A DNA stretch of 64,000 nt from Bilabrum cf. latius (Eukaryota): contig OZ237742.1 of NCBI GenBank assembly GCA_965178125.1, forward strand, positions 1,178,001 to 1,242,000. Direction: 5' to 3'. The translations under genes and the position numbers were made by a program. Of this stretch, positions 1 through 64,000 are shown piece by piece (position 1 is the stretch's first letter; each line of letters begins with the position of its first letter). A model generated the notes under the pieces. The model was not told the origin of the DNA. It made no database searches and was given only the letters and a program-made list of their open reading frames with translations.

Positions 1-1927
1 CTGAGGCAGAGCCGAGTGCACCGCCGTGCGGTGCACCGCCCAAAGGACCCGGGTCATGAAGCCAAGCAGATCCTGACGACTAAGGCTGGGAATGGGACCG
101 GGACTGGGACAAGGGAGCTCCTGCTGGGAGAGGTGGCTCACTGCTGGCCACGCTGCCGTCCTGTTCAGCAACTGAATAAGTATCGGCCGCGAATCGACCC
201 GCTGGCTCAAACGTGTGCTCTACCACTCGGCTGCTCATCCTGGGGGCCCGCGCGATCGCGCCCATGCTCGCGCTTCCGCTGCTCCATGTATCGGGCAGCG
301 TGGGAGGCTGCACCCCACCAAAGCTCGGCTTGGCAGTGGTAGCCATGGAGCTGCCCTAGTCGCTGTGACGAGTGACATCTACAGATTCGGAGCGGTGAGC
401 ATCGCGCGCATCGCGCAGATCCAGCACGCCTCGCTGGCCCGTCCCGGCTGCCTGCGCGGCGCCTGGTTCCGCAAGCAGCCAAGAGGCATCAAAGCCGGGG
501 TCCATGCCGACTGTGATTGCTTCTGAAGTGCCTGTCGCCTCGCCTGGACCGCCTGCCGACTAGTCTGACAACGACGGTCTCGCATCAGCAGATGTGCCTG
601 CTGTGAATGGAGTAGCTTTAGTATGCCGCCTGCCCACTGATGCTGGTTGTGCAGGCAAGCCGGCTGCATCCTCACCTGCCGCCACCGCATACCTTTGCGA
701 CGTGCTCGAGGCGAGGAGGGGAGAGCCCTGGTGATCTTTGACAGCCTCTTCCTGTTCCTGCTCCTCTATCACCACTGGCAGCGATAAATCGGGAGCGCTT
801 GCATCGGCGCTCGCTGGAGCACCTGCTTCGGAGCCTTGGGTTGCCGCTGAGGCTGCTGAGGCTGCAATGGCGGCGGCCGCAGTAGCGACTGAAACGGAAG
901 CTTCGGTGGAGGCGAGGCTCTGTAGCTGGTCCAGGAGCGCCTTTTCGTCCTTATCTTCGATACTAGCTGCGGCTTGGTCGCCTGCGTGGCGACCCGCCTC
1001 GCTACGGACCGGCCTGCCAGCGCCACCGTGCTCGCCTCCGAGCAGCTGCTCCAGTGTGCAGTCCCACTCGCCCGGTGATTCCCCGGTGGAACCCTCCGTC
1101 TGCGAGCTTGCCATTGATTTGAACGCTGCTCGGAGAGAGAGTAGCGCGGCCTGCTTGCTAGCTGGTAGACGCGGCGAGGCCTGAGGATCGTCTCCGGGGG
1201 GCTGATGCTCCTCTGCGGAACTAGCCCCCAATGATGCACCTGTCTATGATGTCTAATCACCAAGTGCGCTGACTGCTGCGGATATTGATGCGGATGCGCC
1301 CTCTCGTGGCACTGCGTCTGCTCGCGGAGTACCCGTGCTGGCCTTGACGGCACCATTCTGCTAATCTGCGCCTGTCCCAGTCACAACTTCGGAATCTGAG
1401 CTGTCCGAATCCGAGAGGTCTGCATCCAGTGCGCCATACATTTGTGATGCTGAGCTGATTGAGGGTGGCTCAGCGGTGGTGGGCGTCCTATCGGTCCCGG
1501 CACCTGTGGCAGCGGCGTCAAGGAGCTACAAGAGGTCTTGCTCTCCAGCGTCAGCAATACGTAGCGACCCGTTCATGCGTAAAGACTTGTCGGCGATGCC
1601 ATTGACTTCCTCCATGATACCGTCCATGTCTGACGCCCCATCCACGGTGGAGCGTTGTGCTACCACCTCGAACTGGGCCCGACTATCACCTCCAGGCATT
1701 GATGCGCGTTCCTGGATAGTTAAAACACGGCTGATGTACTTGCCAGGACTATCTGGGAACATCGAGCAGTCACAGAAATCGTCTGAATCCACGCTAGTTG
1801 ATTCAAGCACTTGTGAGACAGTGTCATCTGCTGAGGCAGCACCGCTTCCTTCTTCACCGTTTCGCTCGGTCTCAATCTAAACATCCAGAATCCCAAGATC
1901 GACGAAGCCGTCTCCTTCTGCCTCCAT
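1..1927 (-). CDS. Unknown Ser/Ala/Asp-rich protein, 3' end outside window (TAG read as Gln)
   Basis: ATG at 1927 (MEAEGDGFVDLG...). ORFs 1526-1810, 560-1231 and 80-346 share one frame and are separated only by TAG (about 8); no TAA/TGA to the window edge. No recognisable domain. Confidence 0.7.
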
Positions 1928-2171
1928 GGCTAGCGACAGTGATGCGGTCGCCTGTCAACTTGCAAATGAATTTCCGGATCACCCACCAGGCCACAAATGG
2001 ATAAATTAGCGATGAATGTGCCACTCTGTTCAGCGCTTGGTTGGGACATATCCAAATTGATCTACAGTAGCTCTGTTGCACTCGAATTGATCGCCGATGA
2101 CTGCCTCATACGACAAGAGTTGTGGACTCTCCCACCAATCGACCGGCAACGCAAGCAAGACCTGCTTCCTT

Positions 2172-4688
2172 TCACCTGCGCCTGCCCCCGTTACCGCCAC
2201 CGCGCCGGCCTCCACCTCCACCGCGACCCCGACCACCACCTCCGCCGCGACCACGCCCACCGCCGCCACCGCCCCTGCCACGCCCACCACCGCCCACCTG
2301 CTGCACCCTCAGCCCCCCGCCGCTCCCGCCGCCGCCGCCGCTCGTCCTCCTCTTCTTGCGAGCCCCGCCGTCACCGCCCTGCCCCTGGCCCTGGCCCTGA
2401 CCACGGCCGCCACCCCTGCCCCCCTGCTGCTGATGTCCCCCGCGGCCGCCCTTCCTGCCCTGGCCCTGGCCCTGGCCCTGGCTCTCGGGGCCGCCCTTGC
2501 GCTTCTGCCCGCGGCCGCCGCTGGCGCTGTTCCCTCCGCCCCCGCCCTTCTTGCCCCCAGCATCTCCCTTCATGCTGGTTTGACCACCCTTCTTTCCACC
2601 CTGCTTGCCACCTTGACCACCCTTGCCTCCCTTGCCACCTTGACCACCCTTGCCGCCCTGGCCCTGGCCCTGGCCCTGGCGGTGCTGCTGCCCAAAGGAC
2701 AGAGACATGAGCTGAGGGCCCTGCCCCTGCCCGCCCACGAGCGACGCCGGCATCTTCTGCCCCACGCGCAAGAGGACGGCGGGCTCCTGCAGGAGCGCTG
2801 TGGTGAGCGTCCTGAGAGACCGCACGATCCTGCGGGCGTCCATGGCCCGCTTGCTCTGCGACTCGATCGCCTGGCGCTCCTCAGTACCGGGCGTCTCCGC
2901 TCCCGCCGCCGCCGCGCTGCTGCTAGAGCTAGAAGAAGAAGAGGAGGAGGAGGAGGAGGAGGCCGCGGCCGCCTCCGCCTTTGCTGCCGCCTTCTTGGCG
3001 TCCACATACTGCTTCCTCTTCTTGCGCAGCACTGCCAACATCGCGCCCAGCCTGCCGTCATACAGCTCGCACCATGTCTTGAGGGCGCGCAGGGCAGACG
3101 AGAACCGCCGCGCTTCCTCCTGCATGGGATTGCTCTCCATCATGCCCATCATGTCGCTGGGCTGCCCCGTGAAGACCGCCTTCTTCTTGGGCTTGGGGTC
3201 GAGACCCGTCACCTCCATCAGAGCGTCAGGGTGCTTGCGGCACAGCGAGTGCACGGCATAGAGCAGCACCTCCAGCCGGCTGAAGTGCGGGGCGCCTGCT
3301 GGCAGCTCCACCTTGTCCTCCTCCTCCTCCTCCGCTTTCTTCTCCTCCTCCTTCTCGCCCGACGCCGACGAGGCTGCTGCTTCCTCGCCCGACGCCGCCG
3401 CCGCAGAGGTGGTCGCCTTGGCGAACTCCGAGGCGGAGGGGGGCGCCGTGGGCAGGTGCGCCTTGAGCGCGGCATACGCGGCGCCGCGCATCTTGCGGAT
3501 CTCATCCCCGTCCCGGTCGGGCCTCATCCCGTCGGTGAGCTCCACCAGCAGCCGCATGAGCCTGTCCGCCTTGCCCGGGTCCGCCGAGGCGGCCGCGTCC
3601 AGGAACTTGGCGTCCAGGAGGTGTGTTCTAGCAAAGGCCACGAATGCCTGGCCGTGCTCGCTCTCCCTCGTGCGGATGGCGAGTGCCAGTGCCCTGGGGA
3701 GGGTGCGGGTGAGCCTCACGACCACGGGGCCGGTGGGCTCGCCGCACTCGTCCAGGCGGGCGATCTCGGCCAGGACCCGCAGGATGCCGGCGCGGCCCTC
3801 GGGGGCCGGTCGCTTCTCCTTCTCTTCTTCTTCCCCGTCCTTCTTCTCCCCGGCTTCCTCTCCCTCCTTGGCCGCCTCCTCCTTGCCGTCGCCGTCGCCG
3901 GCCGAGGCAGCAGCATCGTCGGCTCCCGCGCCGCTGGCGGCACCAGACTCGCCAGCCGCTTCCTTCTTCGGCTTCGGGGGCTCGCGGCTGAAACGACGCA
4001 GCTGGAACAAGGTGCGCGCAGCCACCGCAAAGACGGGCTCCGGCGTGGCCTCGTTCATGAGAGGGGCAGACAGGATAGCGATGAGCCGATCCTCAGATTC
4101 CTGCGAGTTGCGGGATGCCTGGATCGCGAGGCGCTGCAAATCGCCGCGGCGCAGGTAAGTCATGGCTTTGGTGGCAAGCGCAGGGTCTTCCGGATCCTGT
4201 GCGTGCTTGAGCAGCGCCTCGATCGCGCCAGCCACGTCGCCGCGGATAGTCGTGCCTAGCGCTGCCTCAGCCGCCTCAGCCTCCTCTGCAATCTCGTTGT
4301 TCAATAACTAAGTCAAAACATCGGCAATCTTGCCAGTCACGGCCGGAACCCCAGCGCAAATGTTGGGCAATCCGCGGATTGCCTTGAGGCGCACAGGGGC
4401 GTTGTCATCCTCCACAAGGTCAAAGTACGCGTTCATTGCCTATTCCTATACGCTTGCATCGTCAACAAAGTAGCGAAAGTATTTGGCAATCCACTCTACG
4501 GCTAGGAATTTGCTCTGGGTGTTTGTAGCGCTGGAATCAAGGATCTTTCTGTACGCATCGGCGTGGTTGCCGCGCTCGGCCTCCGGGGCCCCCTCGAGCT
4601 CCTCGTGGGCAGAGTACAGGGTTGCTGCAAGCGGATTCGCTGCCCCCTTGAATACCTTCTCGCCTCCAGACGTCTTGGCTTCCTCCAT
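2172..4688 (-). CDS. API5: Apoptosis inhibitor 5 (API5)-like helical protein with Gly/Gln/RGG-rich C-terminal tail, ~838 aa
   Basis: ATG 4688, TGA 2172-2174. Motifs AYRKIL, SKFLAVEWIAKYFRYF and AMNAYFDLVEDDNAPVRLKAIRGLP..KIADVLT*LL match API5 (AINAQLDLCEDEDVSIRRQAIKELP..RVADILTQLL). In-frame TAG at 4446, 4440 and 4308. Confidence 0.85.
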
Positions 4689-4915: not shown

Positions 4916-7465
4916 ATGCCGAAGAAAATGAGTGCGAGAGCCATGCTGAAGGCCAAAAAGAAGAGGGAGGCCGAGGAGAAGAAGGCGAAGGAGGCAGCGG
5001 CCAAGGCCGCGGCTGGAGGAGCCGCCAGCTCGGAAGCCCCTGCTGCTGCAGGTCCTAGCTCTGGCGCCGGGGATTCTTCAGGAAACTCTGGTCTTGCTGA
5101 TGCCGCAAGGGCTGCTATTGATGCCGCCAGCGCGAGCACGAGCAGCGGCCCAGTGACCGCCGCCGACATGGAGGAGCGAATGAAGAAAGCGATGGACGCG
5201 AGAGAGAAAATCGCCGAGACGGCATTGCTCGGGGAAGAGATGCACAGAAGGCTTATGGACGAGGCGATGAGCAAGATCAAGTGAGGGTGTTTGTGGGCAG
5301 GTTTTTGAATTGTTTTTCACCAGGAACAGCGGTCGCATCCACTGGTCCGACAACGGCTGCGGCCGAATCAGAGGCCAACTCTGCAGCGATCGGGGCGAGG
5401 TGCAGCAGCAGTATCGCATCTAAATTCCGTTCCTGTCTTTCTCCCCTTTTCCGCCCGCAGCGTCACCTACACGGCGAGCAAGGAGCAGCACGAGAACGAG
5501 CGCGACATCCACGTCAAGGGGCTCTCCGTCACCCTAGGGCCCAAGATCCTGCTTAAGGACACGGACATCACACTCTCGCACGGAAACCGGTACGGCCTCA
5601 TCGGCCGCAACGGCTGCGGGAAGAGCATCCTGATGACCATCCTTGGCCGGAGGCAGGTGCCCATCCCCAAGCACATCGACTCGTACCACCTCGTGTCCGA
5701 GATCGACCCCACGGACATGTCGGCCATCGAGGCGGTGCTCGCCGTGGACGTCGAGAAGAAGAGCCTCGAGGCCGACGCAGAGCTCCTCACGAACGCCATC
5801 GGCGAGGGGGACGATTCTGAGGAGACGCTCACCAAGCTGGACGAGATCTACGAGCGGCTGGACGAGCTGTCGGCTGAGACGGCAGAGAAGAGAGCGGCTT
5901 CCATCCTCCACGGTCTGGGCTTCACAAAGGAGATGCAGGCCAAGAAAACGAAGGATTTCTCCGGTGGGTGGCGCATGCGCATCTCCCTTGCCAGGGCGCT
6001 GTTCCTCAACCCCACTCTGCTGATCTTAGACGAGCCGACTAACCACCTGGACATGGAGGCGGTGGTGTGGCTGGAGGAGTACCTGGCCAAGTTCAAGAAG
6101 ATTTTGCTGCTGGTGAGCCACTCCCAGGACTTCCTCAACACTGTGACCACGCACACGGTGCACTTTCACCTCAACAAGCTGTCGGTGTACGCCGCCAACT
6201 ACGACGGGTTCGTGGCGGCGCGTGAGGACAAGGAGATGCACCAGTCGAAGAGGCACGAATGGGAGCAGGCGCAGATCAAGAAGATGAAGGAGTACATCGC
6301 CAAGTTCGGGCACGGGACCAAGAAGATGGCCAAGCAGGCGCAGTCCAAGGAGAAGACACTCGCCAAGATGACACGAGAGGGACTCACAGAGGCGGTGTCA
6401 AAGGAGAAGCTCATCTCCATGAAGTTCCCCAACCCCGACAAGCTGCCCCCGCCCGTGCTGCAGATGCAGAACATCAGCTTCGGCTACACGGAAGACCAGC
6501 TGCTCTTCAAGGACGTCGATTTCGGGGTGGATCTCGACAGCCGGATCGCCCTCGTGGGACCCAACGGGGCGGGCAAGTCCACCTTGCTCAAGCTCATGTC
6601 GGGGGAGCTGACCCCGGTTAAGGGCGCTGTGCGTCCGCACCCGCACCTGAGGATGTCTCGCTACACGCAGCACTTTGTGGACACGCTCGACCTTGAGATG
6701 ACCCCGCTGGCCTTCTTCTGCGGGCTGAGACCAGAGGAGTCTGAGACGCAGATGAGGAGATACCTTGGCCGGTTCGGGGTGGGCGGAGACATGCAGACCG
6801 AGACGATGAAGTACCTCTCCGATGGTATCAAGAGCCGCGTGGTGTTCGCCATGCTGGCGCTGCAGAACCCCCACATCATCCTGTTCGACGAGCCCACGAA
6901 CCATCTGGACATGGAGTCGATCGACAGCCTCGCCGCGGCCATCAACAAGTTCGAGGGCGGGGTGGTGCTGGTGAGCCACGACATGCGGCTCATCTCGCAG
7001 GTGGCGGAAGAGATCTGGGAGTGCGACGCAGGCACCATCGAGATGTTCCCCGCGGACATCGGGGCCTACAAGCTGAGGCTCAGGGCGAGGATCGAGAAGG
7101 CGCAGAGGGCCTTCGAGGCGGGAGAGGTGGCGGGGGACGGCGTGGCGGCGGCCAAGGCCAGGGCGGACGTGGGTGGGGCTGCCGCGGGGGGTGCCTCAAA
7201 GGCCAGCAAGGCGCCGGCGGCAGCCAAGGCCGCGGGCAGCAGCAGCAGCAGTGCGAGTGGTGGCGCCAAGGGTTCTGCGGGGTCTGCTTCGGCCTCGTCT
7301 GCGGGGGCTGAGGAGGAGTCCAAGGTGTCCTCGTCGAGTCCTGCCCCTGGTTCTGGTTCCGCATCTGCCGAGGCGAGGGCTGCGGCGCCGGCTGTGGGTT
7401 CCAAGGGGTTCCAGATTGGCGGGGGAACCAAGAAGAAAGTGGAGGCGGTCGGGACGTGGAGATGA
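4916..7465 (+). CDS. ABCF2: ABC-F family ATPase (ABCF2/Arb1-like), 2 exons (4916-5280, 5461-7465)
   Basis: Two ABC domains: GRNGCGKS / FSGGWRMR / LILDEPTNHLD and GPNGAGKST / LSDG / DEPTNHLD; no transmembrane domain. Splicing 5281-5460 joins MSKIN-VTYTASK in frame. TGA stop; no internal TAG. Confidence 0.93.
5281..5460 (+). other. Spliceosomal intron of ABCF2-like gene (180 bp)
   Basis: GTGAGG donor, pyrimidine tract, CCGCAG acceptor; removal restores the frame. Confidence 0.85.
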
Positions 7466-7811: not shown

Positions 7812-10800
7812 TCACCGCGAGCCTCCGCCTTCGACCGACTTGGACTCGTGCCAGTCGTACCCAGGCGTTCCGGCCGTCGAATACGACACCGCCCGGCCAG
7901 AGCCAGTGCCAGTGCCAGTGCCAGTGCCGCTCGCGCCTCCGCTCTTCCCGTTTGCATGCCCCTGCCGGCGATTCCCGCCGCGCCGGTCGCCGCCCAGCCG
8001 AGCCTGGCCGTCCACCCCAGGTGCAGCTGGCCGGTCCTCGCGCAGCTCTTCCAGCCGTAGGGGTCCACGGGAGGAGCTGGGAACTGCCACCGCATCGTGA
8101 GGCTCCCCGGCCTGTCCCGCCCCATTTCCCACCGTCACGCCACCAACTCGTCCGGCATGCCGCCCGGTTTGATCACCCTTCGTGCCACTTTGTCCATCTT
8201 CAGGTTGGGTAATCTCATCGTGGGGAGGCACCGGGTCACCATCCTCGTGTGGCGATGGCGGGTCACCACCGGGCACCAAAGGGCCCAGGGGCGGCGACAC
8301 GCCCGTGAGGACGCTGTCACTCCTCGTGACGGCCCCGCCCGCCCCTGTCACTGCACCTGTCGCCGCTCCTGTCGCCCCTGCCCCTGACCCTGACCCGCGC
8401 TGCGCAGCCCAACCCACGCCAGATTTCGCTTGTCGACCTGCGCTCTCCGTCCCGGCGCCGTCTCCCGTCCACGAGGCCTTCAGCCCGTCCTCGTCGTCAT
8501 TGTCCACTTCCACGCGAGCCTCCTCGCGACCGGTTTGACCACCCCCTGGTGCGTTCGAGACCGGCGATGTGTCTGTGTTGGATCCGGTGCGTTGCCGGCT
8601 GGACGCACCACCGCGCGATGCACCCTCGGAGGCACCAGCGAGCACGCCAAATCCGAACCCGCCGCTCGCGCTCCTCCGATCCGACCCGGAATCGATAGAC
8701 AGCTGCTCGCTGGTCTCCCTACGCACCTTGGCACCGGCAGCCCTACCCCTGCCATCGGCGTCACCATCCCTTTCTCCGTTCGTGTTCTAGTTCTCGTTCT
8801 AGTTCTCGCCTCCGTTGGCCATGGAAGTCCCCGCCGCGGGCCCCAGCAGACCCCCGCGGCCATGGGCGCCCCCATCCTATCCCCCACCCTCTTCCTCGAG
8901 GTGGGGGGAGGAGGCGGGCCCCAGCAGCGGGGAGGTGCCCGGCTGCGGGGAGTGGTGGTCGTTGGACTCAGAGTGGTGGTCGCATGCCGCGGCCTTGTGC
9001 CGTGCCCAGGCGTGGGCCTGCGTGGGGGCGGTTTCTCGCTTCATCTTCATGCTTGCCGCGGTGCCAATGCCCACGCCCACACCCACGCCCGACGAGGTCG
9101 AGGAGGAGGCGACAGGTGCCCTAGGCTCGGACAGAACGCGACGCATGGGCGCGTGGTGTGACGAGTGCGGCTGGGCGGCCCGGATCTCACCGCTGTGCTC
9201 GTGGGAGGGGGACAGCGGCGGCTTTCGCGTGGGGTATCGACCTACACTCTCCGAATGCCGGGGTACGGTGGGTGCGGGTGCATAAGCAGCACCAGCGCCT
9301 GCACCAGCACCAGCACCAGCACCAGCACCAGCAGCGGCAGAGTCCGCCCGACCCCCAGAGGCTGCAGCCGAGACTCCTGCGTGGTCGCCGCCGGTGACGC
9401 CTCCGCCGACAGAACCAGCTCCCGCCCGAGATTCGATTCCGGATCCATTCCCTCCGGAGCCGGTGCTGCTGTCCCACCCCGATCCCCGCTTCCGAGCCGG
9501 CATCTCGATGCCCATCCTGGCCAGCTCGGGGCCGAGCATGAGGTAGAGCCTCTGCAGCTCTTCGGAGCTCGCGCCGGAGCTCGCGCCGGATCCGGAGGTA
9601 GACGATGATCTCCCACCGCCGCCACCGATTTGACCACCTCCTTGGATCCTCTGCAGCAGGTCCCTGACGAGCGATTCCCTCTGCTGGGGCGACAGCACCG
9701 CAGCAGCGGGTGCTTCTGCCCCGCCCACCTCGCCCCCCTCGCCGGCGCCGCGCATCCGGTCCCCTGCGGAACCGCCCATGAAGGAGGCCGCGTGCGCCAG
9801 CGCCCCCGCGCCCATCCGCAGGGCTGCGTACGCGGCGGGATGTTCCGCAGCGAGGGGGTCTTCGTGCGCGGCGCCGCCGGGAGCGGCTGACGGCCGGCGG
9901 CCCCGCACCAGCACCATCGCGCCGCCGCCTGTGTTCCCTGTGTTCCCTGTGTTCCCCCTGTATGGGCCTACGCTCTCCTATGGGGCGGCGCCCCCACCTC
10001 GCTGCATGTCGGCTGCACTCTCCGGGGATGCGGGGGTCCAGTCGCCGCCCCCCATTTGGGGGACACCCCCCGGGGTGTACCCGGGAGTGGCGCGACCCTT
10101 GTCCTTTTCCCGCGGGTCGTCAACCGGTGCGGGCAGAGCCAGCATGGGGCCCCTGGCTGCACCACCGTGGGCTGCACCCATGCCCGGTATCCTCGCACCG
10201 CCTGGTATCTCCAGACCGCCCGTCCGCCTGGCTGCGTTGAACTGCATCAGGAACGCCTCCCTGGCCAAATGGAACGCGCTGGGCAGCTGCAGCACGGCCT
10301 CCGTCGCAGCCGCCGCCGCCCGCGCCTCGTCACGCGGGAGCCCCCGTGTGACGAGTGCTCTCTCCGCTGCCAGGGGGGCGAACCAGGGGTGCTGCAGGCA
10401 CTCGTGGGCCGTGGGGCGGTCGGCCGGGACGGGGCTAAGCATCCTCTTCACCAGGTCTTTGGCTCCCCTGCTGATGTGCGTCCACACCGGAGCTGGGAAT
10501 CCGAACGCGTTCGTCAGCACGCGCTGCTCCCACAGTTCTCGCCCGTTGAGCAGATGACCCAGCTTCTGCGCCGCCTCGTTGTGCTCCCACCCCTCGGCCC
10601 CAGCGGCTTCGAAGGGAAATTCGGCGGATAGCAGCACGTACAGCACCACGCCGCAGCTCCAGATGTCCACGGCCGCGCCGTAACTAGGCAGCTCGGACTC
10701 GGAATCTCCGCTCCCACCCCCGGTCCCAGCACCACCACCACCGTTGCTGCTGCTGCTTCCACCAACGCCGCGCTTCATTGCGCTGAGAGGCAGCAGCCCG

Positions 10801-11294
10801 CCATGATCAGGACCCCCAGTTCCAGAGCTCTGCTCGTACAGCACCATGGCTTGCTCGGCCACGGACAGCCCGCCACCCGCCGCCCCCACGTTCCTTCCGC
10901 TGTTCCCCCGCCGAATGCCCCCCGTAGCACCCCCTACCCTCGCCCTCTCCCTGGCCCTTCGCCTGGCCTCCCGCTGTCTCCTCGCTATCTCATCCCGCAC
11001 CATGATGACCTCGGGTGCCAGGTACTGGGGGCTGCCCAGGAACGTGCGGGCTCTCCCCGCCCCGCCCATGCCGGTCGTGGGGCCGAAATCGGCCTCGCCC
11101 GCCTCTGCACCACCATGCAGTGCACCCGTGTGGCCCTCGCCTTCGCCGACTCCCGAAGCGGCCTGTGACCCCACCCCGGCCGCGCGCCTCCACGCAGAGA
11201 GGGCGGCGCGGTCCTGCGGCGAGGACGCGGAGGACGACTCGAAGGCGCCTCCGACGTACCTCGCCGTGCCGAAATCGCACAGTTTCACGTAGAT

Positions 11295-11336
<42 letters not shown>

Positions 11337-52839: not shown

Positions 52840-55800
52840 TCACCACCCATCGTCGTCGGCCAGCTCGTCCAGCAGAGGGTCTGCTGCCGCGCCGCTGCTG
52901 CCGCCGGCACCGGCTCCAGACGCAGCCGGAGGCGTCGCCGCAGGTGCCGCCACGGGTGCAGCCGCCCCTGCTCGCCTCGCCTGCGGCTGCGCGTACGTGA
53001 CCAGGCCCAGGCACTGCTCGCCTACCCTGCTCATGCCGTCCACGCGGCACACCTCCCCTGCGTACTCGGGCTTGTAGTGCGCCCCGCACAGGGGACTCAT
53101 CACCGAGGGAGACCCCCTGTAGATCGGGGTCAGCGAGGCCCCGCACAGCACGAAGGGATTCCTCTCGTCGTAGTCGATCGACAGCGCGTTCCTGCCCTGC
53201 TTCTCGCCCGCAGCCACCACCCGCCGCGCCTTGCCCGCCTTGTCCTCGTAGGCAGCAGTTGCCGCCTCGGGCATCTCGAGGAGCCGCCGTGCGAACCCCA
53301 CTGCGTGGATGAAGTTCTTGGCCTTGTACGCGAGCGCCATGGCCAGGTTGAGCACGAGGATCTGGTGCGCGGGGAGCAGCTTGCAGTGGGTCAGGTACGC
53401 CGCCAGCTCCAGCTTGCGGCCCACGTCCTTGGTCGTCGCCCGCGCGTCCGTGAGGATGCACGCCAGCTTGTACTCCTTGCAGGAGGCCAGCAGCTGCTTG
53501 ACGGCCTCCCCCTCCGCTCTCCTGTCCACGCAGGCAAGCGGAATGGATGCCATCATCGAGTCCAGGTGGGCGGACAACACCTTGAACTTGCCGCCGAGGA
53601 AGAGGCGGTACACGGTGGCCTGCATGTCGTTCAACCGGGCCAGGGTGTAGAGCGTGGAGGGCCGCTGGGACGACCCGCCCCCCTTACCCGAGGGGACCGT
53701 CCGCGACAGCGGGGTCACCAGCGGGGGCAGGCTGGGCAAAGTGGGGAGGCTGACCCGCCCCGCGGCGTATGCCGCCAGCATCTTGGGCTTGAGGCGGTCG
53801 AACTTCACGATGCCAGCCTGCCTGCGGAGCAGCTCCACGGCGGAATCGAAGCGGCCGACCGCGGCGTGCTCCGCGGCGACCGACGAGTCCATCGTCCACC
53901 GGTCCGCGTACCCGCGCCCCGCCGTCGGCACGATCGTCGCCCCCGCCGAGGCCCCGCCCTTGCCACCTCCAGCCGCCTTTCCACCAGGGGAGCTTGGCAG
54001 ATCGGGCAGGTCCAAGTCGGCCTCGCCGTCCCAAGCGCCGCCCTCGCCGTCAGCCTCCTCCTCCTCGGCCGCAGCCCCGCCGGCCGCGGCCCCGCCCTTG
54101 CCCCCATCGTCGTCCCCGTCCCCGTCCAGGTCCAGGTCATCGCCGCCCCACGCACCGCTCGCGGCGGCCGCGGCCTCTGCTGCCAGCGCCGCCTCAGCAG
54201 CGGCCGCGTCGCCGTCCTCCTCCCGACCCTCGGCAGCCGCCTTGAAGGAGGCCTCGAACGGGCTGGCCCGCACGGCGCACAGCGGCCAGTCCTTCCCGCG
54301 CACGATGGGGGTGGGGGGCACGCAGGCCACTGCTCCCGGGTCCCCGTTGGCTGCATCCGTGGGCGCGGACCGGGTGCCAGGCGTCACGAGAGACCCTTCC
54401 GCGTGGGCGGCCGCCGCCGCCCCGATCCCGCTCGTGTCCGGCAGGGGGAGCCCCGCCTGCTCCATGGCGTCCTGCAGCCGCTTGGCGTCCTCCTCCAGGC
54501 CGTAGGTGCGCGCGCACGCGTAGGCCAGGGCGACCTGCCCCGCGTCCTCGAGGACCTTCACCCTCTCCCCCGCGTCTCCAAGGTACAGGGCGTTGTGGAA
54601 GCGGGCAAGCGGGTCCTAGGTCTTGTTGGCGATGGCCATCATGCGCCCCACGTAGGCACGCTGGCCCGAGATGAGGTACAGGAAGCTGAGCCTGTCCATG
54701 TCCCTGACCTTCTGGTACGCGGTCTCGGCCGTGTCGAAGCTGCCCTGCCTCAGCGCTTCGGCTGCCAGCCTGCGCCACACCTCCGGCTTGTCCACCTTCA
54801 TGGCCGCGTCCTTGGCCTGGTCCAGGTTGCCGCACGCGAGCGCCAGGCCGAATCTCGTCTCCGGGTCCTCGACGAAGTGCAGCGCCACCTCTGGATAGCC
54901 GGACCGCTGCAGGTACCCGATCACTGCCTCGCCCACCATGGACCCCGTCCGGATGAGCTGCACCACCCTGGCATACTCTTTTCTCTGCAGCGCCTGCTTG
55001 AAGAGGTACTCGGTGGGGTCGTACCGCAGGACCCTCACCTTGCTGGACCGGTCCATGCACCTCGCCCTCGACTCTCCCGCCTCGAACACGTACACGGGGG
55101 AGTCCAACGTCCGCAGCACGCCCCGCTCGCCCTTCTCCGTGGGCAGCAGGTACTTGAGGTGGGTGAGAGTTGAGTACACGAGCACGCCGTTCTCGTCCCA
55201 GGCCGCGCTCTTGACCTTGGCGATCTCGTGCACGGCGCACACCTAGGTCAGGTCCTGCGTGGCGATCACGAGAGTGGTCTTACTCATGAGGGCAACGTGC
55301 TTGCCGTCGTGAGACCACGCGACGTACCTGACCTTCACCCCGGAGATCTCGTTGATGATCCGCCTGGACTGCGTCTCGAAGAGGCACACCCTGTCCTGCC
55401 TCCGGACCAGCACCCTGCCGGGGGTGGAGGCCTGGAAGAGCTGCTCCGTCTGATCCGCGTAGGGGGGATCGATCCGCTTGACGGTCTTGTTGGCGAGGTC
55501 CTTGATGGCGAGCTTGCGGTTGGAGTCGAGCACGACGAACGATGCCCTCGACAGGAAGGCGACCGACAGGCCCAGGCCGGTGACAGCCCTCGGGTCCGAC
55601 TGGTTGAGGTTGAACAGCCGGTACATGCCCCCCTCCTGCTTGGACCAGATGAGCACGTTCTCCTCGGCGGGGTTGTAGCGGTTGTGCTGCAGCTCCCGGG
55701 GGAGGGTGGTGAAGTTGTGCACCGACGTGTTGGAGGGCACGTCAGCGACCCTGACGTCACTCCCCGACTCGGTCATGGCGCGGCGGAGCTTCTGGTCCGA

Positions 55801-56966
55801 GACGTACAGGAGGAGCCCTTTGCCCGCCGACGAGTACGCCGGTCGTTCCCTCTGCAGCTTGAAGACGAGCATGCCGCTGTCGTGGCCCGCGGCCAGAAGC
55901 CGGTTGGTGGGGTGCGCGGCCATGATCCAGAAGCGGTCCGCGGACCTTCGGAAGGTCTGCAGCGCGATGCGCTTGTTCGAGTCCCACACCCGGATCGTCT
56001 TGTCCTCGCTGTTGGAGACGATGAGGTCGTACTTTGGGTGGTAGAGCACGCTGGAGACGTTGTTTGTGTGCCCCCGCATGGAGTCCACCTCCCAGGCCCG
56101 GCTCTCGCTGGTCCTCCACACCTTGACCTGGTTGTCGTCGGCGCCAGACACGATGAAGGGCTTGGCGGGGTTGGGGTGGAACTGCGCCCAGTTGACGCCC
56201 CGGTCGTGCCCTTCGAGCACGAACTTGATGACTGCGTCTGCCCCGAAGAGGTCCCCGTCCTGCTGCTGGGCGGCGATCATGTCCTGGGGGCCGGAGCGGA
56301 CGTTCTTGCGGCGGAGGCCGCTGATGTCCCACACGCGGACGGACTGATCCAGGGAGGCCGAGACCACCAGGTCCTCCTGAGGGTGAAACTGCGCGCACAT
56401 GACGTAGTGGTTGTGGCCCGCAATCACCGTCAGGCCCGAGCGCGACTGCCAGTTCCAGATGCGGATCGTCTGGTCGTCCGAGGCCGAGAGGATCCACGGG
56501 TACTCATGGTGGAACTGCGACGCGGGCGTGGCATGCAAAACAAGAAAAAGTGGTCGCGCAGGTGCAGGATGTGTGTGAGCGTGAAGCGCAACGTGGGTGC
56601 AGCAGACGGAAGCAAGACACCCTGCGAGAAAGCTGCCGCGGGGAGCGCAGAATGGCTCACCTAAACCGTACGGATGTAATCAACATGCCCCTACAGCGTG
56701 AACAGGCTTCGCCGGGAGGGGTTCTGGTAGTTCCAGACCTTGATCAGGTAATCGTCGCCTCCGGACACAAACAGCGGTTGCTGCAAGTGAAAGTCCACGC
56801 CACGAACGGGCCCCACGTGCTCTTCGTACTTCTCCAATAAGGCCTGCATCTGGTAGTCCCAAAGCTGGATGCTTCCATCGTGCAGCGAGGCCAAAATCCA
56901 AGGGCGCTTCGGATGGAAGCTCAACCCCTTAACTCGCTTGCTCCTCGACTCAAACTTAGTCAGCAT
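52840..56966 (-). CDS. COPA: Coatomer subunit alpha (alpha-COP); exons 56966-56661 and 56514-52840
   Basis: [31 protein letters not shown]40 repeats, [63 protein letters not shown]. Four in-frame TAGs (56691, 56661, 55243, 54616); TGA at 52840. Confidence 0.97.
56515..56660 (-). other. Intron of COPA (146 bp)
   Basis: GTGAGC..GTCGCAG, phase 0; joins DYIRTV*-FHHEYPW. Confidence 0.9.
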
Positions 56967-57787
56967 GGCTGGTCAGAGTGCAGCACGAATCAAATAGTCA
57001 CGAAGAGCGATCCGGAAGACAGACAATGTAGCGATGTCGTGCTTGGTTCCTGCAATTTGCTTCAGGCGCTGCATCAAGCAAAAAATACACAATTACGACG
57101 TTACTTTTCTAAGTTGCGTGCTGTTCAGACAATAGAGTAATTTTTACGTTTCGTCAAACATCTAGATACGAATGAATCGACTCCCCTCACAGTGGCAGTA
57201 CAATAATTCGTTAATTAATGTTCTCTGTATCACCTCACACGATCTTTAGAGCGCTGCCGATGCGGTCGTTTTTTGCCAGTAGCATGGTGAATCGCAATGC
57301 CAGTCACGCAGTTGATCGCGCCAAATGGTTGCCCTTGAGCATCCATTAAGATTTCATCTCTGCTCGCAACGGTCACACTGCAGGGTGGTGTTGGCTTGCG
57401 CTTTGTTGTATCAGCATCTCGCCGAAGTATCCCGTGCAGGCGAGCAATTAGACAGCAAGTGCCTTTGGTCTGCATGATGCCTTGATTGGCTGCGCTTCTG
57501 GAATCATGGATTAATTCATGCATGAGACCTTTACCACGGCCTATCCCGTCCCACCGCTTCACGAGAGAGAGAGAATATAATATGTCTGAGTCAAAGCACA
57601 CACTACCCAACTACAACGACCACCCCAAGAGGCAATCGCACTGGGCAGGTCGAACGGATCAGCAAGCTCACGCCATGGGCTCCGCAAGCTGGGCCGCTCC
57701 TCCGTGGGGGAGTTGCGCTGCTTGCGGTCCATCTGCGTTCGCGATGCCTTCGTGTTCGATTGCGTTCGGATCAGCCGCCTCGTCCGC

Positions 57788-57805
57788 GAGAGAGAGAGAG
57801 AGAGA
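57788..57805 (+). repeat. (GA)n microsatellite in the divergent intergenic region
   Basis: About 9 GA units; a shorter run lies near 57563. Confidence 0.8.
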
Positions 57806-57917
57806 AAATAGAGTTTTCGCACGCAATTCACGAGACTCTAGCGTTGCGCAGGTTGTGATGAGTGCGGCGCCGACCACGTCGAGATGCTGACCTGCGCTGA
57901 CACGACGCACAAGCAGC

Positions 57918-59584
57918 ATGCTCTCCTTGGTACTAGCCAGCCTGATCGCTTCGGCCGAGGCCATACCAGTGCAAATCGTGCATGCAAGCTTTGACGCGCC
58001 CGCCGTTGATGTCGTAGTGGACGGTCAAATCGTGAGAGGAGGGGTGGTCCATGTCGATGGAGGTGATGTCACGCGATCAGTGTGACGCAGCTCGAATCTC
58101 GATCCACCGCGACAGCTTCGGCGGTACTTTCCGCCGCTACTTCGATCTATTTTGACTCATGACCTGAAATCTGTGCGAGCCCTTACGTATTCCTCGAAAT
58201 CGAGCCGCAGGCCGCCAGGAACGTCCCCTTCGGCAACGCGACTGCTTTTGTCGAGTTGGCCCCTGGCTTTCACAAGGCTGAGCTGCAAGTAGGAGGCGAA
58301 ACAGTATTGAAGCATATGCTCCTTACCCCTGCTTCACCTCTTGATCCTGGTGACCGCCTGCAGCAGACGGTGTACGCAGTGAATCCAGTGGCTGCTCTCG
58401 GCGTCCAGGTGACGTACGGTACGATAGCAAGAGAGATCCCGCCGCGCGACCAAGGATCGGTAATATCTGGGTTCTTGCATCTCTCTCCTGATGCTCCTTC
58501 GGTGCGCCTAGAGATCGAAGGCGGCTAGCTTTTCGACTTCGAGCTTTCGTACGGGGATTCTACCGGCTTTTTTGCGCATCTGCAGAAGAGTACCGAGCAA
58601 AAAATAAGTGTGTTTGTCGAAGATGTTCAGGTTTTTACTGCAACTGTGCCTGCGGGCTCCCTAGACTCGCTGGGGTACGCACAGTTTGCTATCATCGGCA
58701 GCGCGGATCCCCGTGCACCAGCGGGGCAGGCCCTCCAGCTACTGGCACTGCCAGCCTCTTCCTCAGGATCCAGCGCTCAGAATGGCAGCCCAGACAACGA
58801 TGGTGCTCTATCGTTCCCGTTCAAGCCGGTCCAGAGTCCGGAAAGGATACTCGCTCTCCTCTCGGCGGGGCCGGCCGCCACGGCACCCGTCCGGGTCGCG
58901 CATGCAGTCCCTGACGCGCCCGCCGTGGACGTGCTGGTAGACGGGCAGGTGGTGGTCAAAGGGGCAACCTTCAAGGGGTTCACCAAGTACCTGCAACTGC
59001 CCACGGGTGAACACAAGGTCGAGATCAGGGTTGCCGAGGGCACGCAGGAACCAACGAACGGGGTCTGGCTGGGGCCCGGGCTCGGCTACGGCAAGGGGGG
59101 AGACGTGGTGCACAAGCAGAAGATCTGGCTGCCACCGGTCCTCGCGGGTGACTAGGCCGAGCCCCGCACCATCGCGGCGGTGGGTGCACTGGGCAACAGG
59201 AGCGTGGCGCTGCAGGTCATCAACGACGGGGGCCAGAGCTCCGTGCCCAAGACGGAGGTGCTGATGAGGATGGGGAACCTCATACCCGACATGCTGCAGC
59301 CCATCACCATCATGGCCAATGAGAACGATTTCATCGCCAACGTCTACTACGGAGAATTCACGAACCACTACCTGAGGGTACCTGTGGATGGCGGCAGCAT
59401 CGAGTCGTTCCTGTTCCGGGCGAGGTCACCCGTGCCTCTCGGCAAATCGGTGACCCAGATCCCACCGGAGGGCCTGGGAGCCATCTGGGCCGATGTGGCG
59501 CTGGGGGCTGAGGCAGTGTCCGGCAGTTTCACGCCACTCGTGGTGCAGGACGGCACGCAGGTGCCGGACTCCACCAGCGCGTGA
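57918..59584 (+). CDS. Secreted DUF4397-like repeat protein; exons 57918-58031 and 58211-59584
   Basis: Signal peptide MLSLVLASLIASAEA. Repeats VQIVHASFDAPAVDVVVDG, GFLHLSPDAPSV and VRVAHAVPDAPAVDVLVDG..FTKYLQLPTG. TAGs at 58526 and 59153; TGA stop. Confidence 0.82.
58032..58210 (+). other. Intron of DUF4397-like gene (179 bp)
   Basis: GTGAGA..GCCGCAG, phase 0; joins DGQI-AARNVPFG. Confidence 0.85.
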
Positions 59585-59668
59585 GTTGCATGATATGCTT
59601 AGTCTCCGATCGCGGCTTGAAGATTGCAAACCATAGCGTATTCTCAATTATGTATAGCTTCATCTAAA

Positions 59669-61780
59669 TCACATGGGCACCACGCCTGCTCCACGACCCG
59701 CCCCGTACACGCCGCCAGTGCCACCTCCACCTCCACCTCCACCCACGCCCAATGCTCCTCCACTGCCACTGGTGGCGAAGCTGAACCCTGCGCTCGCTGG
59801 TGCCATTCCGGGGTGGTACAGCTGAGGTTGCTGCTGCATGCCGTATCCACCTATGGGCTAGGATGCAACGGCTCCCATCCCGGGGCCCTAGTATCCGGGG
59901 TATCCCCCCCCCGCCGCGGACTGCCACCCAGCAGGCCCCATCCCCATCCCCATCCCCGTCCCAGATCTCCGGGGGTCTCCCATGCCACCGACTGCAGGAC
60001 CACCCCCCATCATCTGTGCCTGCAGCGAGGCAGCAGGGGAGGGACCATACACCTGCCCCTGGCCCTGCATCTGGCCCTGCCACCCACGCTAGCCCATCGA
60101 TCCCATGGGCTAGGCACCGAACTCAACGCCCGGGGAAATCCCCCCGCCGAACCTTCCTTTCCCCAGGGGACCCGCGGACAGGATGGAGGCCAGGCGAGGG
60201 TCCGCCCCGGCCCCCGGCTGCCCCATCCCCTGCTGAGCACCCCACTGCGCCTGCTGCTGCTACCCCGCACCCCAAGCGGGGGACTACCAAGCACCCCCGC
60301 TGTTCCCCCGGGGGATCACCTGGGGGTAGTAGGGGCCCGAGCCTCGCATACTCTGCGCCAGGTCTGCGGACCGACGGGCGGCCTCCTCGGCGGCGCGCTG
60401 GGCAGCCCTGCCCGCAGGTGAGGCCGCAGCGTCAAGTGCCCCCGCAGCTCCCTGCCTGCCAGAGGCGATGGGTGACACGGCGCGCACCGGGGATCGAGCC
60501 CCGGAGCTGCCGCCCTCCCCTTTGCGCCCCTCGGTAGCCCCATCGCCACCCCCTTGTTCCCCAGTGGCGTCGTACTGCTCCTCTTCCGCCTTGCCTTCCT
60601 CCACGGCCCGGGCGAAGGCTGCGGCACCCAGCCCGCGGGCAGTCTGCCGGTTCATCTCGTCCCTGTAGTTCCCCGTCCCCTGATCCCTTGATAATAGCTC
60701 CGAGTCCGAGAGACCCAGCGCCGCGGGTCCGCCGTCTCGAGAGGCCCCTGGGTCTCGGATGATGTACCTGCCGCTGGAGGGGTCGAGCCGGATGAAGGGG
60801 TTCGGCTGGTGGCACATCTCGCATACCCTCGCTCTCCTCCTCGTCTGGGCCGCGCCGCACGCAGGGCAGGACCAGTAGCCGGTGCGGCGGTAGGCCTCCG
60901 TTAGTTCCCTGGATTTCTCGGAGGCCCACCTGGCCCTGCTGTCACCTCGAGCACCCCCACGGGGGGGGGACGCACCCCCAGGGGATTTCCCCCGGAGCGT
61001 GTCTGCCACCAGCGAGGCCACGGCCATGGTGTCGCTGCGAAGGGGCCCACGACTCCCGTCTGCACTCATCACACCGCCTCCACCGGGCCCACCGCCCCAC
61101 TAGCCGCCGACGCTGCGCCGTGCACCGCCGGCCGATTGGAAGCCGATGCCCATCCCAGCCCCCATCCCCATGCCGGCTACCCCACCCCCGGGCCCGTCAG
61201 CCGCGCCGCTCCCCAGCAGCCCAGACGTCCCACCCGCCCCAGATCCAGATCCAGACCCACCTTCAGCGCCCTCCGTGAAGGACCGACGCAGCCTACCCGC
61301 AGCAGGGGAGCCCGGCCCGCCTCCGCCTGCCCCTGCCCTCGTGCCGGTCGGTGTGCCAGGCCTGGACACCCTGTTCTCTGCGCGGCTGGGGCTGAGCGGG
61401 AGCGAGAGACCGCCCGGGGCGCCACTCGTCACACCGCCACCGAGGAGACCCCCCGTCCCGCGGCCCGGCGTGCCGCCCCTCGAGGCTCCCATCGCTGCGG
61501 CAGCACCGGCCAGTGCTGCATCCGATGCCCGCGCCTGCAGCTGCCTGGACGCGCCAGGGCCCATGCCTGCGGCACCCGCGGCAGCGCCTGCCTCTGCCCC
61601 GGCCTGGATCGCGGCCATCAGAGCCTGCTGCTCGGGGGAGAGCTGAACACCAGCAGCGGCCCACCGCCCGCCATCCACGCCCATGCCCGTGCCCATCCCC
61701 ATGCGGCTGCGGGAAGCTGCAGCCAGGGTGCCAGGAAGCCGACGGCCGTTGCTGCCGTCCATCATGCCGGCAGCTCCTAA

Positions 61781-61820
<40 letters not shown>

Positions 61821-64000
61821 CCACCGGTGCCCGACATGCCCATGCCTCCGGACAGGAAGCGCCCCGAGCCCCTGGACCGGGGGTCAAACCCTGGAGCCTG
61901 TGCCCCCAGGAGCAGCGGGTCGGCGCCCCACGATGCCTGCGCCGCTTGCGGTCCCGCCGCGAGGGCAAGGGGCGGTTGCTGCATGAACGCGACGAACCTC
62001 GTCCAGGCCACGGGGAATCCCATGGTCAGCGAGTCTCGACCGCTTCCCATGTCCTCTTCCCGGTTCCGCAGCGGGTGGGAGGGGCGCCGCGCATCGGCCC
62101 CGCGCGGGGAGCCCGGAGACTCAGACCCGCCCCGGTCATCACTCCGAGAATCGGAATCGGAATCGGAATCGGAATCGCTCCACTCGCCGTCGTCATCGCT
62201 GCGGTCTGATGAATAGCTTCCGCGTCGGCCGCGGCTGTCCCTGCCTGTGCCTCTGCGGCTCCGGCTCCTTCTCCCCCTCCTCCTTCCTCTTCCTCTTCCT
62301 CTGCTCCTGCTCCTTCTGTTTCTGTTCCTCCGTGCCACCCGGCCCCAGTCCCCGAAGCCTCCGCCCTCCCTCCCGTCCTCCAGCCGCATCCACCTCTCAC
62401 GCCTGGACCGCATCCCTCCCGCAGACCTCGGGTCCTCCCCCTCTGCCCTCAGGCGGACCGCTGCAGTGGCGAAATGCCGCGCCACCAGGAGTGCCTCGAT
62501 CTCGTTGAGGGGGAGACGGAGCGCCTGCAGGGCCGCGAGGAAGCTCCTGGAGGGCATCTCGCCAGTCTCCGCGGTGTCGTACAGCCGAAAGGTGGACTGA
62601 ACCCTGACGTCATACCCTTCGTCTGCGGCCCGCATCAGTGAGGCATGCGATCGGAGCACGTCCGCGACCCGACTGACCTCTTCCTCGTCCAGCTCCACCA
62701 GGCTGCACAGATCGTAGTACGACACGGCATCCCTGGGGCGGGCGCCTGAAGAGGAGGATCCAATCCCCCTCGCCCCTCTCCCCAGCCCGCTGTCCTCGTC
62801 CTCACCGCCGTCAAAGTCCGTCCCAAAGCGCCTTTTGCCACCGTGCCGATCAGTGCCCTGGTCCCTTCGCCGCGGTGCAAACGACGCCCGCAATCCGAGG
62901 CCACCGTCCTCCTCGTCCTCCTCCTCATCGTCGCCCTCCTCGTCCTTGCCGGAAGACCTGCCGCGACCGTTGCCCCTTCTGCCCTTCCCGCTTTCCTATT
63001 TCTACTCCCCTTTCTCCTCCTCGTCCTCCTCCCCACCGCTGGCACCATCCATCCAGTCGCCCTCACCACCACCACCACCAGCATCACCACCACCTCCCTT
63101 GCGCCAAGCCCCGCGCCTGGCCCCCCCGCGACCCGCACCATCCGGACCTCCGTCTTGATATTCATCACCACCTTCGATCCCCGGCCAGCCCCTTTCCTTT
63201 GCCTGCATCGCCAGGCGCGCCGCAAGGCGATCCACCTCCGCTGGTGTCATCTCCACGCCCAGCCTGCGCACGGCCCGGCCCAGCTCAGACCGCGAAAACC
63301 ATCCCTTGCCGGTGGGGTCCAGCTGCCGGAACGCGGCATGCACCACGAGGTCCGCGTGGCCCTGCGCCCACGAGGACTCCCTGAGGCGAGCACGGAGCAT
63401 CTGCTCCGCGGGAGACACCAGGCGCACTCCAGCGGCCCTGGCCTGGTCGCCCCCCAGCACCACCCGGAGGAACATCGAATAGTCCACCCGTCCGGAGCCG
63501 TCCACGAAGCAGCCCACGGCGGCCAGCATCAGGGAACAGTCCGCGGGCGTCATCGGCACGCCTAACACCGCCAGAGCGGCAGCAAGCTCAGACACCAAGA
63601 TCCGGCCCAGCCCCCGCGCAACGCCCTCCTGGTGTTGGACCCTCGGGTCGCTGGCCGTGTCGAACCTGGCGAGGGTCCTCAGGACCTCCCCTTGCTCGAG
63701 CCGGGGGTCCCCCAGCCCGGCCCTCACCCTGGCCGCCAACGCCAGCCCCCTGGCCTCGTCCTCTCCGCTTACCAGCAGCTGGCAGAACAGCAGGTAGTCC
63801 ACAGGTGCGTTGCGGCCAGCTGTTCTAGAGCGCCTTGCCCCACCCTTGCGCCCCTGTTCCCTTTCCTCCTCCTCCTCCTCTCTCTCCCCCAAATACGCCC
63901 GCACAGATGCAGCTCTCCTCAGCTCCTTCACTAGCAGCAGTCCGTCTCCGTGCCGCACCCCTAAAGCCCGCATCCTGCCCCTGACCAGCCGCAGAAAGAC
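59669..64000 (-). CDS. Multi-EF-hand protein with RanBP2-type zinc finger and Gly/Gln/Met-rich tail; 5' end outside window
   Basis: EF-hand-like FRQLDPTGKGWFSRSEL, VDGSGRVDYSMF and LYDTAETGEM; zinc finger WSCPACG..CEMCHQPNP. ORFs 63002, 61100, 60284 and 59888 are in one frame joined by about 9 TAGs; TGA at 59669. Confidence 0.78.

Follow-up and report, generated by a model that had tools for sequence, protein, structure and literature searches.

Does the nuclear genome of the eukaryote Bilabrum cf. latius read UAG as glutamine (Gln) while UAA and UGA still end its genes? The question is raised by a stretch of 64,000 nucleotides (nt) of contig OZ237742.1 (assembly GCA_965178125.1, positions 1,178,001 to 1,242,000 of the forward strand), referred to here as the window and numbered from its first letter, in which the triplet TAG recurs inside long reading frames. 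An earlier note, made from the sequence alone, had proposed such a code, and we examined it through the reading frames of the window, their homologues, public contigs and the literature. We conclude that UAG is almost certainly a sense codon. The fuller reading, in which cytoplasmic translation of nuclear genes inserts Gln at UAG and stops at UAA and UGA, has in our estimate a probability of about 85%. The code is of the UAG-to-Gln-only type, the pattern of Iotanema and Protocruzia, which is NCBI table 15.

The window, nuclear DNA of an intron-poor eukaryote, has a GC content of ~64% and carries 14 protein-coding genes, distributed over both strands. Under the standard code, its longest stop-to-stop open reading frame (ORF) is 1172 amino acids (aa) long. 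When TAG is read as a sense codon, split frames merge into the 14 genes, and the longest frames reach 3008, 2781, 2043, 1842, 1443 and 1279 aa. As controls, reading TAA as sense hardly changes anything (longest frame 1232 aa, no large ORFs merged) and reading TGA as sense gives a longest frame of 1364 aa. The 14 stop-to-stop frames hold 96 in-frame TAGs. In the refined gene models, where the COPA and DUF4397 genes are spliced, the API5 homologue is confined to the region of homology and one further gene (GH16) is included, the 15 frames, which make up 14 genes, comprise 18,935 codons, 95 of which are TAG. Four TAGs upstream of the start of API5 homology are left out of this count; the 5' ends of the genes are mostly unmapped, and some of the 95 may fall in 5' leaders. 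At least one TAG is present in 13 of the 14 genes, the ABCF gene having none.

Inside the frames, neither TAA nor TGA occurs, which is partly by construction, as the frames are bounded by these two triplets. The two other frames of the same strand hold 580 TGA, 190 TAG and 55 TAA over the same stretches, and open frames of this length are therefore not due to chance. Moreover, the coding periodicity, with GC content higher at the first than at the second codon position and high at the third (GC3), persists on either side of the TAGs.

Complete 3' ends are present for 13 genes, of which 11 end with TGA and two with TAA, namely the gene at 18643-24171 and the GH16 gene. None of these 13 ends requires TAG. 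When the terminal TGA or TAA was read through, the next TGA or TAA followed after at most 45 codons in the frames tested, the TAA end of the GH16 gene being outside this test. In COPA, the conserved C-terminal region extends to the TGA. If TAA also encoded Gln, ~22 in-frame TAAs would be expected from the CAA:CAG ratio, whereas none is seen in the 18,935 codons (P = 2e-10). Thus, much of what had been read from the letters alone stands: about 95 TAGs, fragments that join across TAG and never across TAA or TGA, continuous proteins of up to ~3000 aa including alpha-COP, and UAA and UGA kept as stops. The tally of 13 out of 15 genes with TAG becomes 13 out of 14.

Are the TAGs still present once the genes are transcribed? 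Thirteen public runs hold part of the window between 50000 and 59999, and four of them, designated X3, X5, X6 and X7, were aligned to 43600-60000. X5 and X6 come from one study and X7 from another; the evidence consists of contigs, not raw reads, and the cover from X5 to X7 is sparse or nil in places, for example in much of 43600-52350. X3 provides an unspliced 25-kb contig that follows the window colinearly over 43600-57592. In each of X5, X6 and X7, a contig of ~4.1 kb fuses 52770-56514 to 56661-57049, with no other letters and no gaps. The segment left out is the COPA (coatomer alpha) intron (56515-56660, minus strand), 146 nt long with the ends GTGAGC...TCGCAG, which is present in X3. Similarly, a 1578-nt contig of X5 fuses 57901-58031 to 58211-59652 and omits the 179-nt intron of the DUF4397 gene (58032-58210, plus strand), whose ends are GT..AG. 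These X5 to X7 contigs are spliced transcripts, their RNA nature being inferred from the GT..AG joints.

The spliced COPA contigs encode a complete protein of 1326 aa that contains four TAGs, at aa 92, 102, 526 and 735. The first two lie in the coding part of exon 1 (56661-56966, minus strand, ATG at 56964-56966), at 56691-56693 and at 56661-56663, the latter being the final codon of the exon; the other two lie in exon 2 (52840-56514, minus strand), at 55243-55245 and 54616-54618, ahead of the TGA at 52840-52842. The spliced DUF4397 contig encodes a 495-aa protein with two TAGs. Its first coding exon (57918-58031, plus strand) starts with the ATG at 57918, and its second (58211-59584, plus strand; Pfam PF14344) holds the TAGs at 58526-58528 and 59153-59155 and ends at 59584 with TGA. 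The 5' leaders measure 83 nt in COPA and 17 nt in DUF4397, and the contigs run on for 70 nt (to 52770) and 68 nt (to 59652) after the respective TGA. In all, TAG is kept at six out of six sites in the spliced contigs, the remaining 89 sites lying outside such contigs. Editing, splicing-out and assembly error are therefore excluded at those six sites. The earlier note had named CAG or spliced-out sequence in mRNA as the observation that would overturn it; at every covered site, the contigs have TAG.

To which amino acid does TAG correspond? Window proteins were aligned to their relatives with X at each TAG. The alignment of COPA to its mouse counterpart (PDB 5a1u_C) has no gaps across the TAGs, and 120 COPA homologues provide columns for them: at aa 102 the residue is Gln in 102 out of 117, and at aa 526 it is Gln in 58 out of 120, followed by His (27) and Asn (16). 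The homologue of API5 (apoptosis inhibitor 5; 2172-4655, minus strand, for the part that matches relative P0121 at 67% identity; Pfam PF05918, E=4.8e-34), which has three TAGs and ends with TGA, aligns to human API5 (PDB 3v6a), also gap-free across TAG. Its TAG at aa 315 (4308-4310) faces Gln in human API5, in Orobanche (P0123) and in P0121. The other two, at aa 269 and 271 (4440-4448), fall in a variable stretch: aa 269 is Arg in P0121 and Ser in P0123, and aa 271 is Leu in P0121, Gln in P0123 and Ser in human. The GH16 protein aligns gap-free across its TAG to solved laminarinases, which have Asn, Lys and Asn at this position.

Further sites come from alignments to close relatives. In the 18643-24171 frame, the TAG at aa 566 (22474-22476) is Gln in P0130 and Ala in P0126, and the one at aa 670 (22162-22164) is Gln in P0126. 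In the 25034-27301 frame, aa 364 (26210-26212) is Gln in P0127. In the 3008-aa frame, aa 2546 (45043-45045) and aa 2589 (44914-44916) are both Gln in P0132, while aa 2660 (44701-44703) is Ser; all of these are on the minus strand. The homologue searches returned three hits for API5 and one for the 3008-aa protein, low-complexity words having filled the lists of ~8000 candidates. A PDB sequence search with the DUF4397 protein gave no hits, and its two TAG sites are therefore unscored against homologues.

Over the 13 alignable TAG sites, the residues of the nearest relatives are QQQRLQQQSLQPR. Gln occupies seven of them, the other six being L, L, R, R, S and P. Gln makes up 3.2% of the 4388 aligned non-TAG positions, which gives a binomial p of 4.6e-8 for seven out of 13. 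In the same alignments, CAG and CAA codons of the window are conserved as Gln at 59% of positions, and the 54% of the TAG sites thus matches the expectation for a Gln codon. When substitution frequencies from these alignments are applied, the maximum-likelihood residue is Gln, which leads Lys by 18.8, His by 24.4, Ser by 31 and Leu by 33.2 natural-log (ln) units; Ser is found at only one of the 13 sites. The proposal that conserved positions point to Gln is borne out by these scores.

TAG accounts for 11.3% of all TAG, CAG and CAA codons, and its density drops as GC3 rises (Spearman rho = -0.70, p = 0.003, 15 frames). This usage fits a rare, AT-richer synonym of CAG. TAG sites are located among AT-richer codons, with Asn enriched 2.1-fold nearby, and within polar tracts rich in Q and N, for example EN#NEN#N and G#QQQAQ (# = TAG).

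Further evidence is provided by the places where the proteins of relatives break off. The close relatives are ORF fragments 59-96% identical to the window proteins; they come from standard-code gene calls, hence their ORFs end at any stop. Nine of these fragments align to their own C-terminus. The next codon of the window is TAG in three cases (P0127, P0128 and P0132), CAG in three (P0125, P0129 and P0130), and AGG, GCA and GCC in the other three, where the fragments may simply stop at contig ends. The three TAGs, all on the minus strand, are found at aa 444 (25970-25972) and aa 555 (25637-25639) of the 25034-27301 frame, at the exact ends of P0127 and P0128, respectively, and at aa 2744 (44449-44451) of the 3008-aa frame, at the exact end of P0132. 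Thus six out of nine breaks fall at Gln-class codons, which represent 4.4% of codons (p = 5.7e-7), and none falls at a Leu codon of the window. Breaks at TAG and at CAG of the window alike are what one would expect of two synonymous codons. In the simplest reading, the relatives would also carry in-frame TAG where the window has TAG or CAG, and the UAG trait would be common to a group of several relatives. TAG and CAG would then be exchanged between relatives by C-T transitions, silent under this code, with TAG as a rare Gln codon. Scans of metagenome contigs, made with a segment of the 3008-aa protein and its P0132 alignment and with the API5 alignment, gave no relatives.

Several observations weigh against this conclusion. 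At two COPA sites, the homologues do not have Gln: the column of aa 92 is Leu in 111 out of 115 with no Gln, and that of aa 735 is mainly Gly (56), Asn (27) and Lys (14), with Gln in only four out of 120. At aa 271 of API5, the nearest relative has Leu opposite the TAG, and Leu, at two of 13 sites, is the second-commonest signal, though within its background of 10% (p = 0.38). A test based on the composition of the four neighbours on either side ranked Thr best, with Gln and Leu tied, at a low self-accuracy (Gln 0.64, Leu 0.5). As for the stops, the role of UAA rests on two gene ends and on the lack of in-frame TAA in 64 kb. The presence of TAG in the relatives is deduced from protein ends. 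Moreover, the types of runs X5 to X7 are not on record, X5 was flagged as 'probably DNA' by a tool's guess, and the run index for this stretch of the window lists no run as RNA. Finally, the whole sample is 64 kb, and its tRNA scan, limited to these 64 kb, returned no genes, and hence none for the predicted tRNA-Gln with anticodon CUA.

This tRNA is the first element of the mechanism that we would predict by analogy, following the reasoning of Panek et al. 2017 (PMC5304391). A tRNA-Gln(CUA) would be needed, since it pairs with UAG and not with UAA, and it would be one mutation away from tRNA-Gln(CUG) (PMC5304391). In addition, eRF1 would probably no longer recognise the third-position G of UAG (PMC5304391); the eRF1 gene is not among the genes encoded in the 64-kb window.

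Among the other explanations, the one that survives best keeps the Gln outcome and changes the mechanism: ordinary tRNA-Gln(CUG) would read UAG as a near-cognate codon, helped by an eRF1 that is weak on UAG, without any tRNA-Gln(CUA). It would agree with the lack of a suppressor tRNA gene in the window, with the minority share of TAG (11% of Gln-class codons) and with a 2026 preprint (PMC13192750) in which tRNA-Gln mediates near-cognate stop readthrough in organisms with the canonical code. However, 95 sites, four of them in the essential COPA, demand efficient decoding; 64 kb is far too short to expect any given tRNA gene; and tRNA-Gln(CUA) genes are documented in lineages that read both UAA and UAG (UAR) as Gln and for which genomes exist, such as Tetrahymena and Spironucleus (PMC5304391). 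We therefore consider near-cognate reading unlikely.

Could UAG be ambiguous instead, i.e., sense within genes and a context-dependent terminator at some gene ends, as in Condylostoma, karyorelicts and Blastocrithidia? Readthrough of TAG by construction conceals any TAG terminator, and in several frames a TAG precedes the final TGA by 18-62 codons, where a TAG stop followed by an open tail would be possible. Yet both genes with covered transcript 3' ends stop at TGA, with 3' untranslated regions of 68-70 nt, and the absence of any gene end that needs TAG, together with the conserved COPA C-terminus that reaches TGA, also argues against such a dual role, which appears rather improbable.

A code in which UAA and UAG both encode Gln (the type of NCBI table 6), with TAA merely too rare to be noticed in a GC-rich genome, has in its favour that TAA is the least common stop trinucleotide of the window (148 occurrences) and ends only two genes. 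Against it stand the ~22 in-frame TAAs expected from the CAA:CAG ratio and not seen. TAA read as sense merges no ORFs, and readthrough of the TAA of the 18643-24171 gene meets the next TAA after only 16 codons. We regard this code as very improbable.

Even less credence can be given to UAG as a Leu codon, known from the rhizarian exLh and some phyllopharyngean ciliates. The Leu columns at COPA aa 92 and API5 aa 271 would suit it, and TAG is one mutation from TTG. Nevertheless, the share of Leu at the TAG sites is within its background, and Leu lies 33 ln units below Gln; the relatives break at CAG codons of the window in three out of nine cases and at Leu codons in none, and the TAGs sit in Q/N-rich tracts. 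Lastly, pseudogenes, assembly or sequencing errors, UAG-to-CAG editing of RNA or tiny TAG-holding introns might be invoked for the 25034-29601 gene, which has a frame-shifting 5-nt duplication and the highest TAG density, but artefact or decay is hardly credible where TAG alone and never the commoner TGA breaks the frames, independent runs match with no differences, spliced contigs retain all six TAGs, alignments cross the TAGs without gaps and TAG positions are common to relatives.

How does the UAG-to-Gln reading compare with known codes? UAA and UAG nearly always change together, and cases confined to UAG are few. According to McGowan et al. 2024 (PMC11687900), the nuclear cases in which UAG and UAA differ are those of a rhizarian (Leu), Iotanema spirale (Gln), Scotinosphaera (Ser) and Protocruzia tuzeti (Gln), to which are added several phyllopharyngean ciliates (Gln twice, Leu) and one ciliate with UAA as Lys and UAG as Glu. 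The precedents named in the earlier note (Iotanema, a rhizarian, phyllopharyngean ciliates) agree with this paper and with PMC5304391.

The closest parallel is Iotanema spirale (Fornicata), a non-ciliate in which UAG alone has changed its meaning, to Gln, while UAA and UGA are stops, and for which the predicted mechanism is likewise a tRNA-Gln(CUA) with an altered eRF1 (PMC5304391). However, UAA is the dominant terminator in Iotanema (PMC5304391), whereas TGA ends 11 of 13 genes in the window, whose GC content is 64%. Among the caviomonads, the change is confined to Iotanema, Euthynema and PCS-ghost using the standard code (PMC9161772), while the relatives of the window appear to share the trait. 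In addition, COPA of the window finds its best named matches among stramenopiles and green lineages and not among metamonads. Common descent of the code with that of Iotanema is not indicated.

Protocruzia tuzeti and two phyllopharyngean lineages also have UAG as Gln and UAA as stop, a combination linked to species of higher GC content (PMC11687900). The window differs in being ordinary long multi-gene nuclear DNA, with genes on both strands, GT..AG introns of 146-179 nt and 64% GC; its COPA groups with no named ciliate, in a tree that had no ciliate rows. The rhizarian exLh (Sainouroidea) resembles the present case in being a non-ciliate with a UAG-only change and in having been found as an unnoticed organism in the data of another organism (PMC5304391), as the window sequence occurs under at least three labels; it differs in reading UAG as Leu, which is rejected here by 33 ln units. 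The UAR = Gln codes (NCBI table 6: many ciliates, hexamitin diplomonads, some Ulvophyceae, Streblomastix and Amoeboaphelidium; PMC11687900) share UAG as Gln, but TAA is not a sense codon in the window. Scotinosphaera, a green alga and thus a non-ciliate with a UAG-only change, keeps UAA as a stop but reads UAG as Ser (PMC11687900), which scores 31 ln units below Gln here.

For the placement of the organism, we used COPA. Its best named matches are stramenopiles (Chrysoparadoxa, Hondaea and chrysophytes) and green lineages, all at ~45% identity. A FastTree phylogeny of this single gene was built from 45 rows, comprising the window, 29 named sequences and 15 other hits, with the other 76 of the 120 hits left out and with no ciliate, alveolate, rhizarian, haptophyte or metamonad rows. 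The window joins P0001 (support 98), then P0021 (99), then P0003 and P0017 (100). This clade of five sequences, in which the branch of the window is long (0.55), stands apart from the named ochrophytes, oomycetes, the labyrinthulomycete Hondaea and the green lineages. The description of the organism as stramenopile-like is therefore not established: stramenopiles are among its nearest named COPA matches, but in this single-gene tree it does not group with the named ones.

Sequence identical to the window is found in runs (X1 to X8) under different coded organism labels, with a share of 0.99 under A and of 0.42-0.71 under B, C and D. As identical sequence occurs under at least three of these labels (A, B and C), the label of a run need not name the source. 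The organism may live alongside other sequenced cultures, or contaminate them.

A search of the open-access full-text literature, with supplements outside its scope, gave no report of a UAG-Gln code in a stramenopile or in another GC-rich non-ciliate lineage, which is weak evidence of novelty. The same literature yielded no paper for the accession prefix of the EukProt record P0021. The window probably represents a new lineage for a known code, the UAG-to-Gln-only one. Whether the code also arose independently here, as an origin that has gone unreported, in a clade of GC-rich and intron-poor protists outside ciliates and fornicates with several sampled species, we regard as evenly balanced; the claim is plausible and rests solely on negative literature searches.

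We now turn to the other genes of the window. Pfam and PDB searches identified seven proteins, namely COPA, an ABCF ATPase, the API5 homologue, a protein kinase, a nucleotide-sugar transferase domain protein, the DUF4397 protein and a GH16 glucanase, and the remaining seven gave no Pfam family above threshold. A scan of the window against Rfam at the gathering threshold gave no matches. At the left edge, an ORF fragment of 651 aa without a Pfam family (2-1954, minus strand), whose 3' end lies beyond the window, has eight in-frame TAGs. Next to the API5 homologue, the ABCF-type ABC ATPase (5309-7465, plus strand), the sole gene without TAG, has a GC3 of 0.85 and ends with TGA. It is followed on the minus strand by the protein kinase (7812-13943; Pfam PF00069), a 2043-aa frame with long low-complexity inserts, 12 in-frame TAGs and a TGA end, and by the nucleotide-diphospho-sugar transferase domain protein (15260-18415; Pfam PF03407), a 1051-aa frame with five in-frame TAGs and a TGA end.

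The next two genes, both on the minus strand, are adjacent paralogues. The first (18643-24171) encodes a 1842-aa protein with no Pfam family and has three TAGs, two of which (aa 566 and 670) are alignable, and a TAA end. The second (25034-29601) consists of two frames, 27148-29601 and 25034-27301, and has a lower GC3 (0.60-0.70 vs 0.77) and far more in-frame TAGs (13 vs 3), which suggests relaxed constraint on one of the two copies. Its frames are parted by a tandem duplication, AGAGC AGAGC, which offsets them by 5 nt at 27203-27207; the relative fragment P0127 continues straight without it. An intron at this junction was considered and rejected, since the sequence there is the 5-nt tandem duplication. 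The duplication could represent a genuine frameshift in a paralogue undergoing decay, variation between strains or a misassembly.

Further on, an 851-aa frame (29835-32390, plus strand) with no Pfam family has seven in-frame TAGs and a TGA end. The GH16 beta-1,3-glucanase (laminarinase-like) gene (32696-33637, minus strand) has one TAG (33188-33190) and a TAA end, and its product has a hydrophobic N-terminal stretch. The 2781-aa frame (35068-43413, plus strand) shows a weak DUF7952 match, 12 in-frame TAGs and a TGA end. Just upstream of it, a BAH-domain-like ORF (34269-34739, plus strand) with two further TAGs in frame is probably a 5' exon of the same gene, in which case the product would be a BAH plus SANT-like chromatin protein.

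The 3008-aa frame (43654-52680, minus strand), with 16 TAGs, a TGA end and no Pfam family, encodes a large, lineage-restricted protein, whose sole detected relative is the 490-aa fragment P0132, 83% identical over aa 2258-2743. Within this gene, depth spikes (47-567) are seen in all four runs at 48523-49069, where numerous short foreign contigs join the sequence at a low-complexity stretch of acidic residues (D/E); with sides of only 20-27 letters, these joints look like repeat artefacts. In COPA, the TAG codon for aa 102 directly adjoins the GT donor site of the intron. At about 57563-57776, in the interval that separates COPA from the DUF4397 gene, lies an element of ~200 bp with a (GA)n run on either side. 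Its contig word depth in the DNA-like run X3 is ~800-1650, compared to ~38 for its flanks, so that it is a multi-copy repeat in this genome. The right edge is occupied by a 1443-aa frame (59669-64000, minus strand), whose 5' end lies beyond the window, with an EF-hand match, a Q/G/M-rich tail, nine in-frame TAGs and a TGA end.

From the cases in which only UAG has changed, it is evident that ribosome, tRNAs and eRF1 are able to distinguish UAG from UAA, and with a further lineage the origin of such codes can be studied in one more independent replicate. The value of this one lies in a GC-rich genome with UGA as the main stop, in several related species and in genomic DNA that is already in hand. 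As a genome assembly exists, the predicted tRNA-Gln(CUA) and the changes in eRF1 are directly checkable. If the reading is true, a first genome-level view of a UAG/UAA split outside ciliates would be possible, with UGA as the main terminator. Moreover, standard-code gene callers shatter the genes of this organism, and in public collections the proteins of its relatives can be seen to stop short at TAG or Gln positions. Table 15 is therefore required for annotations, and for phylogenomic matrices, in which this lineage is represented.

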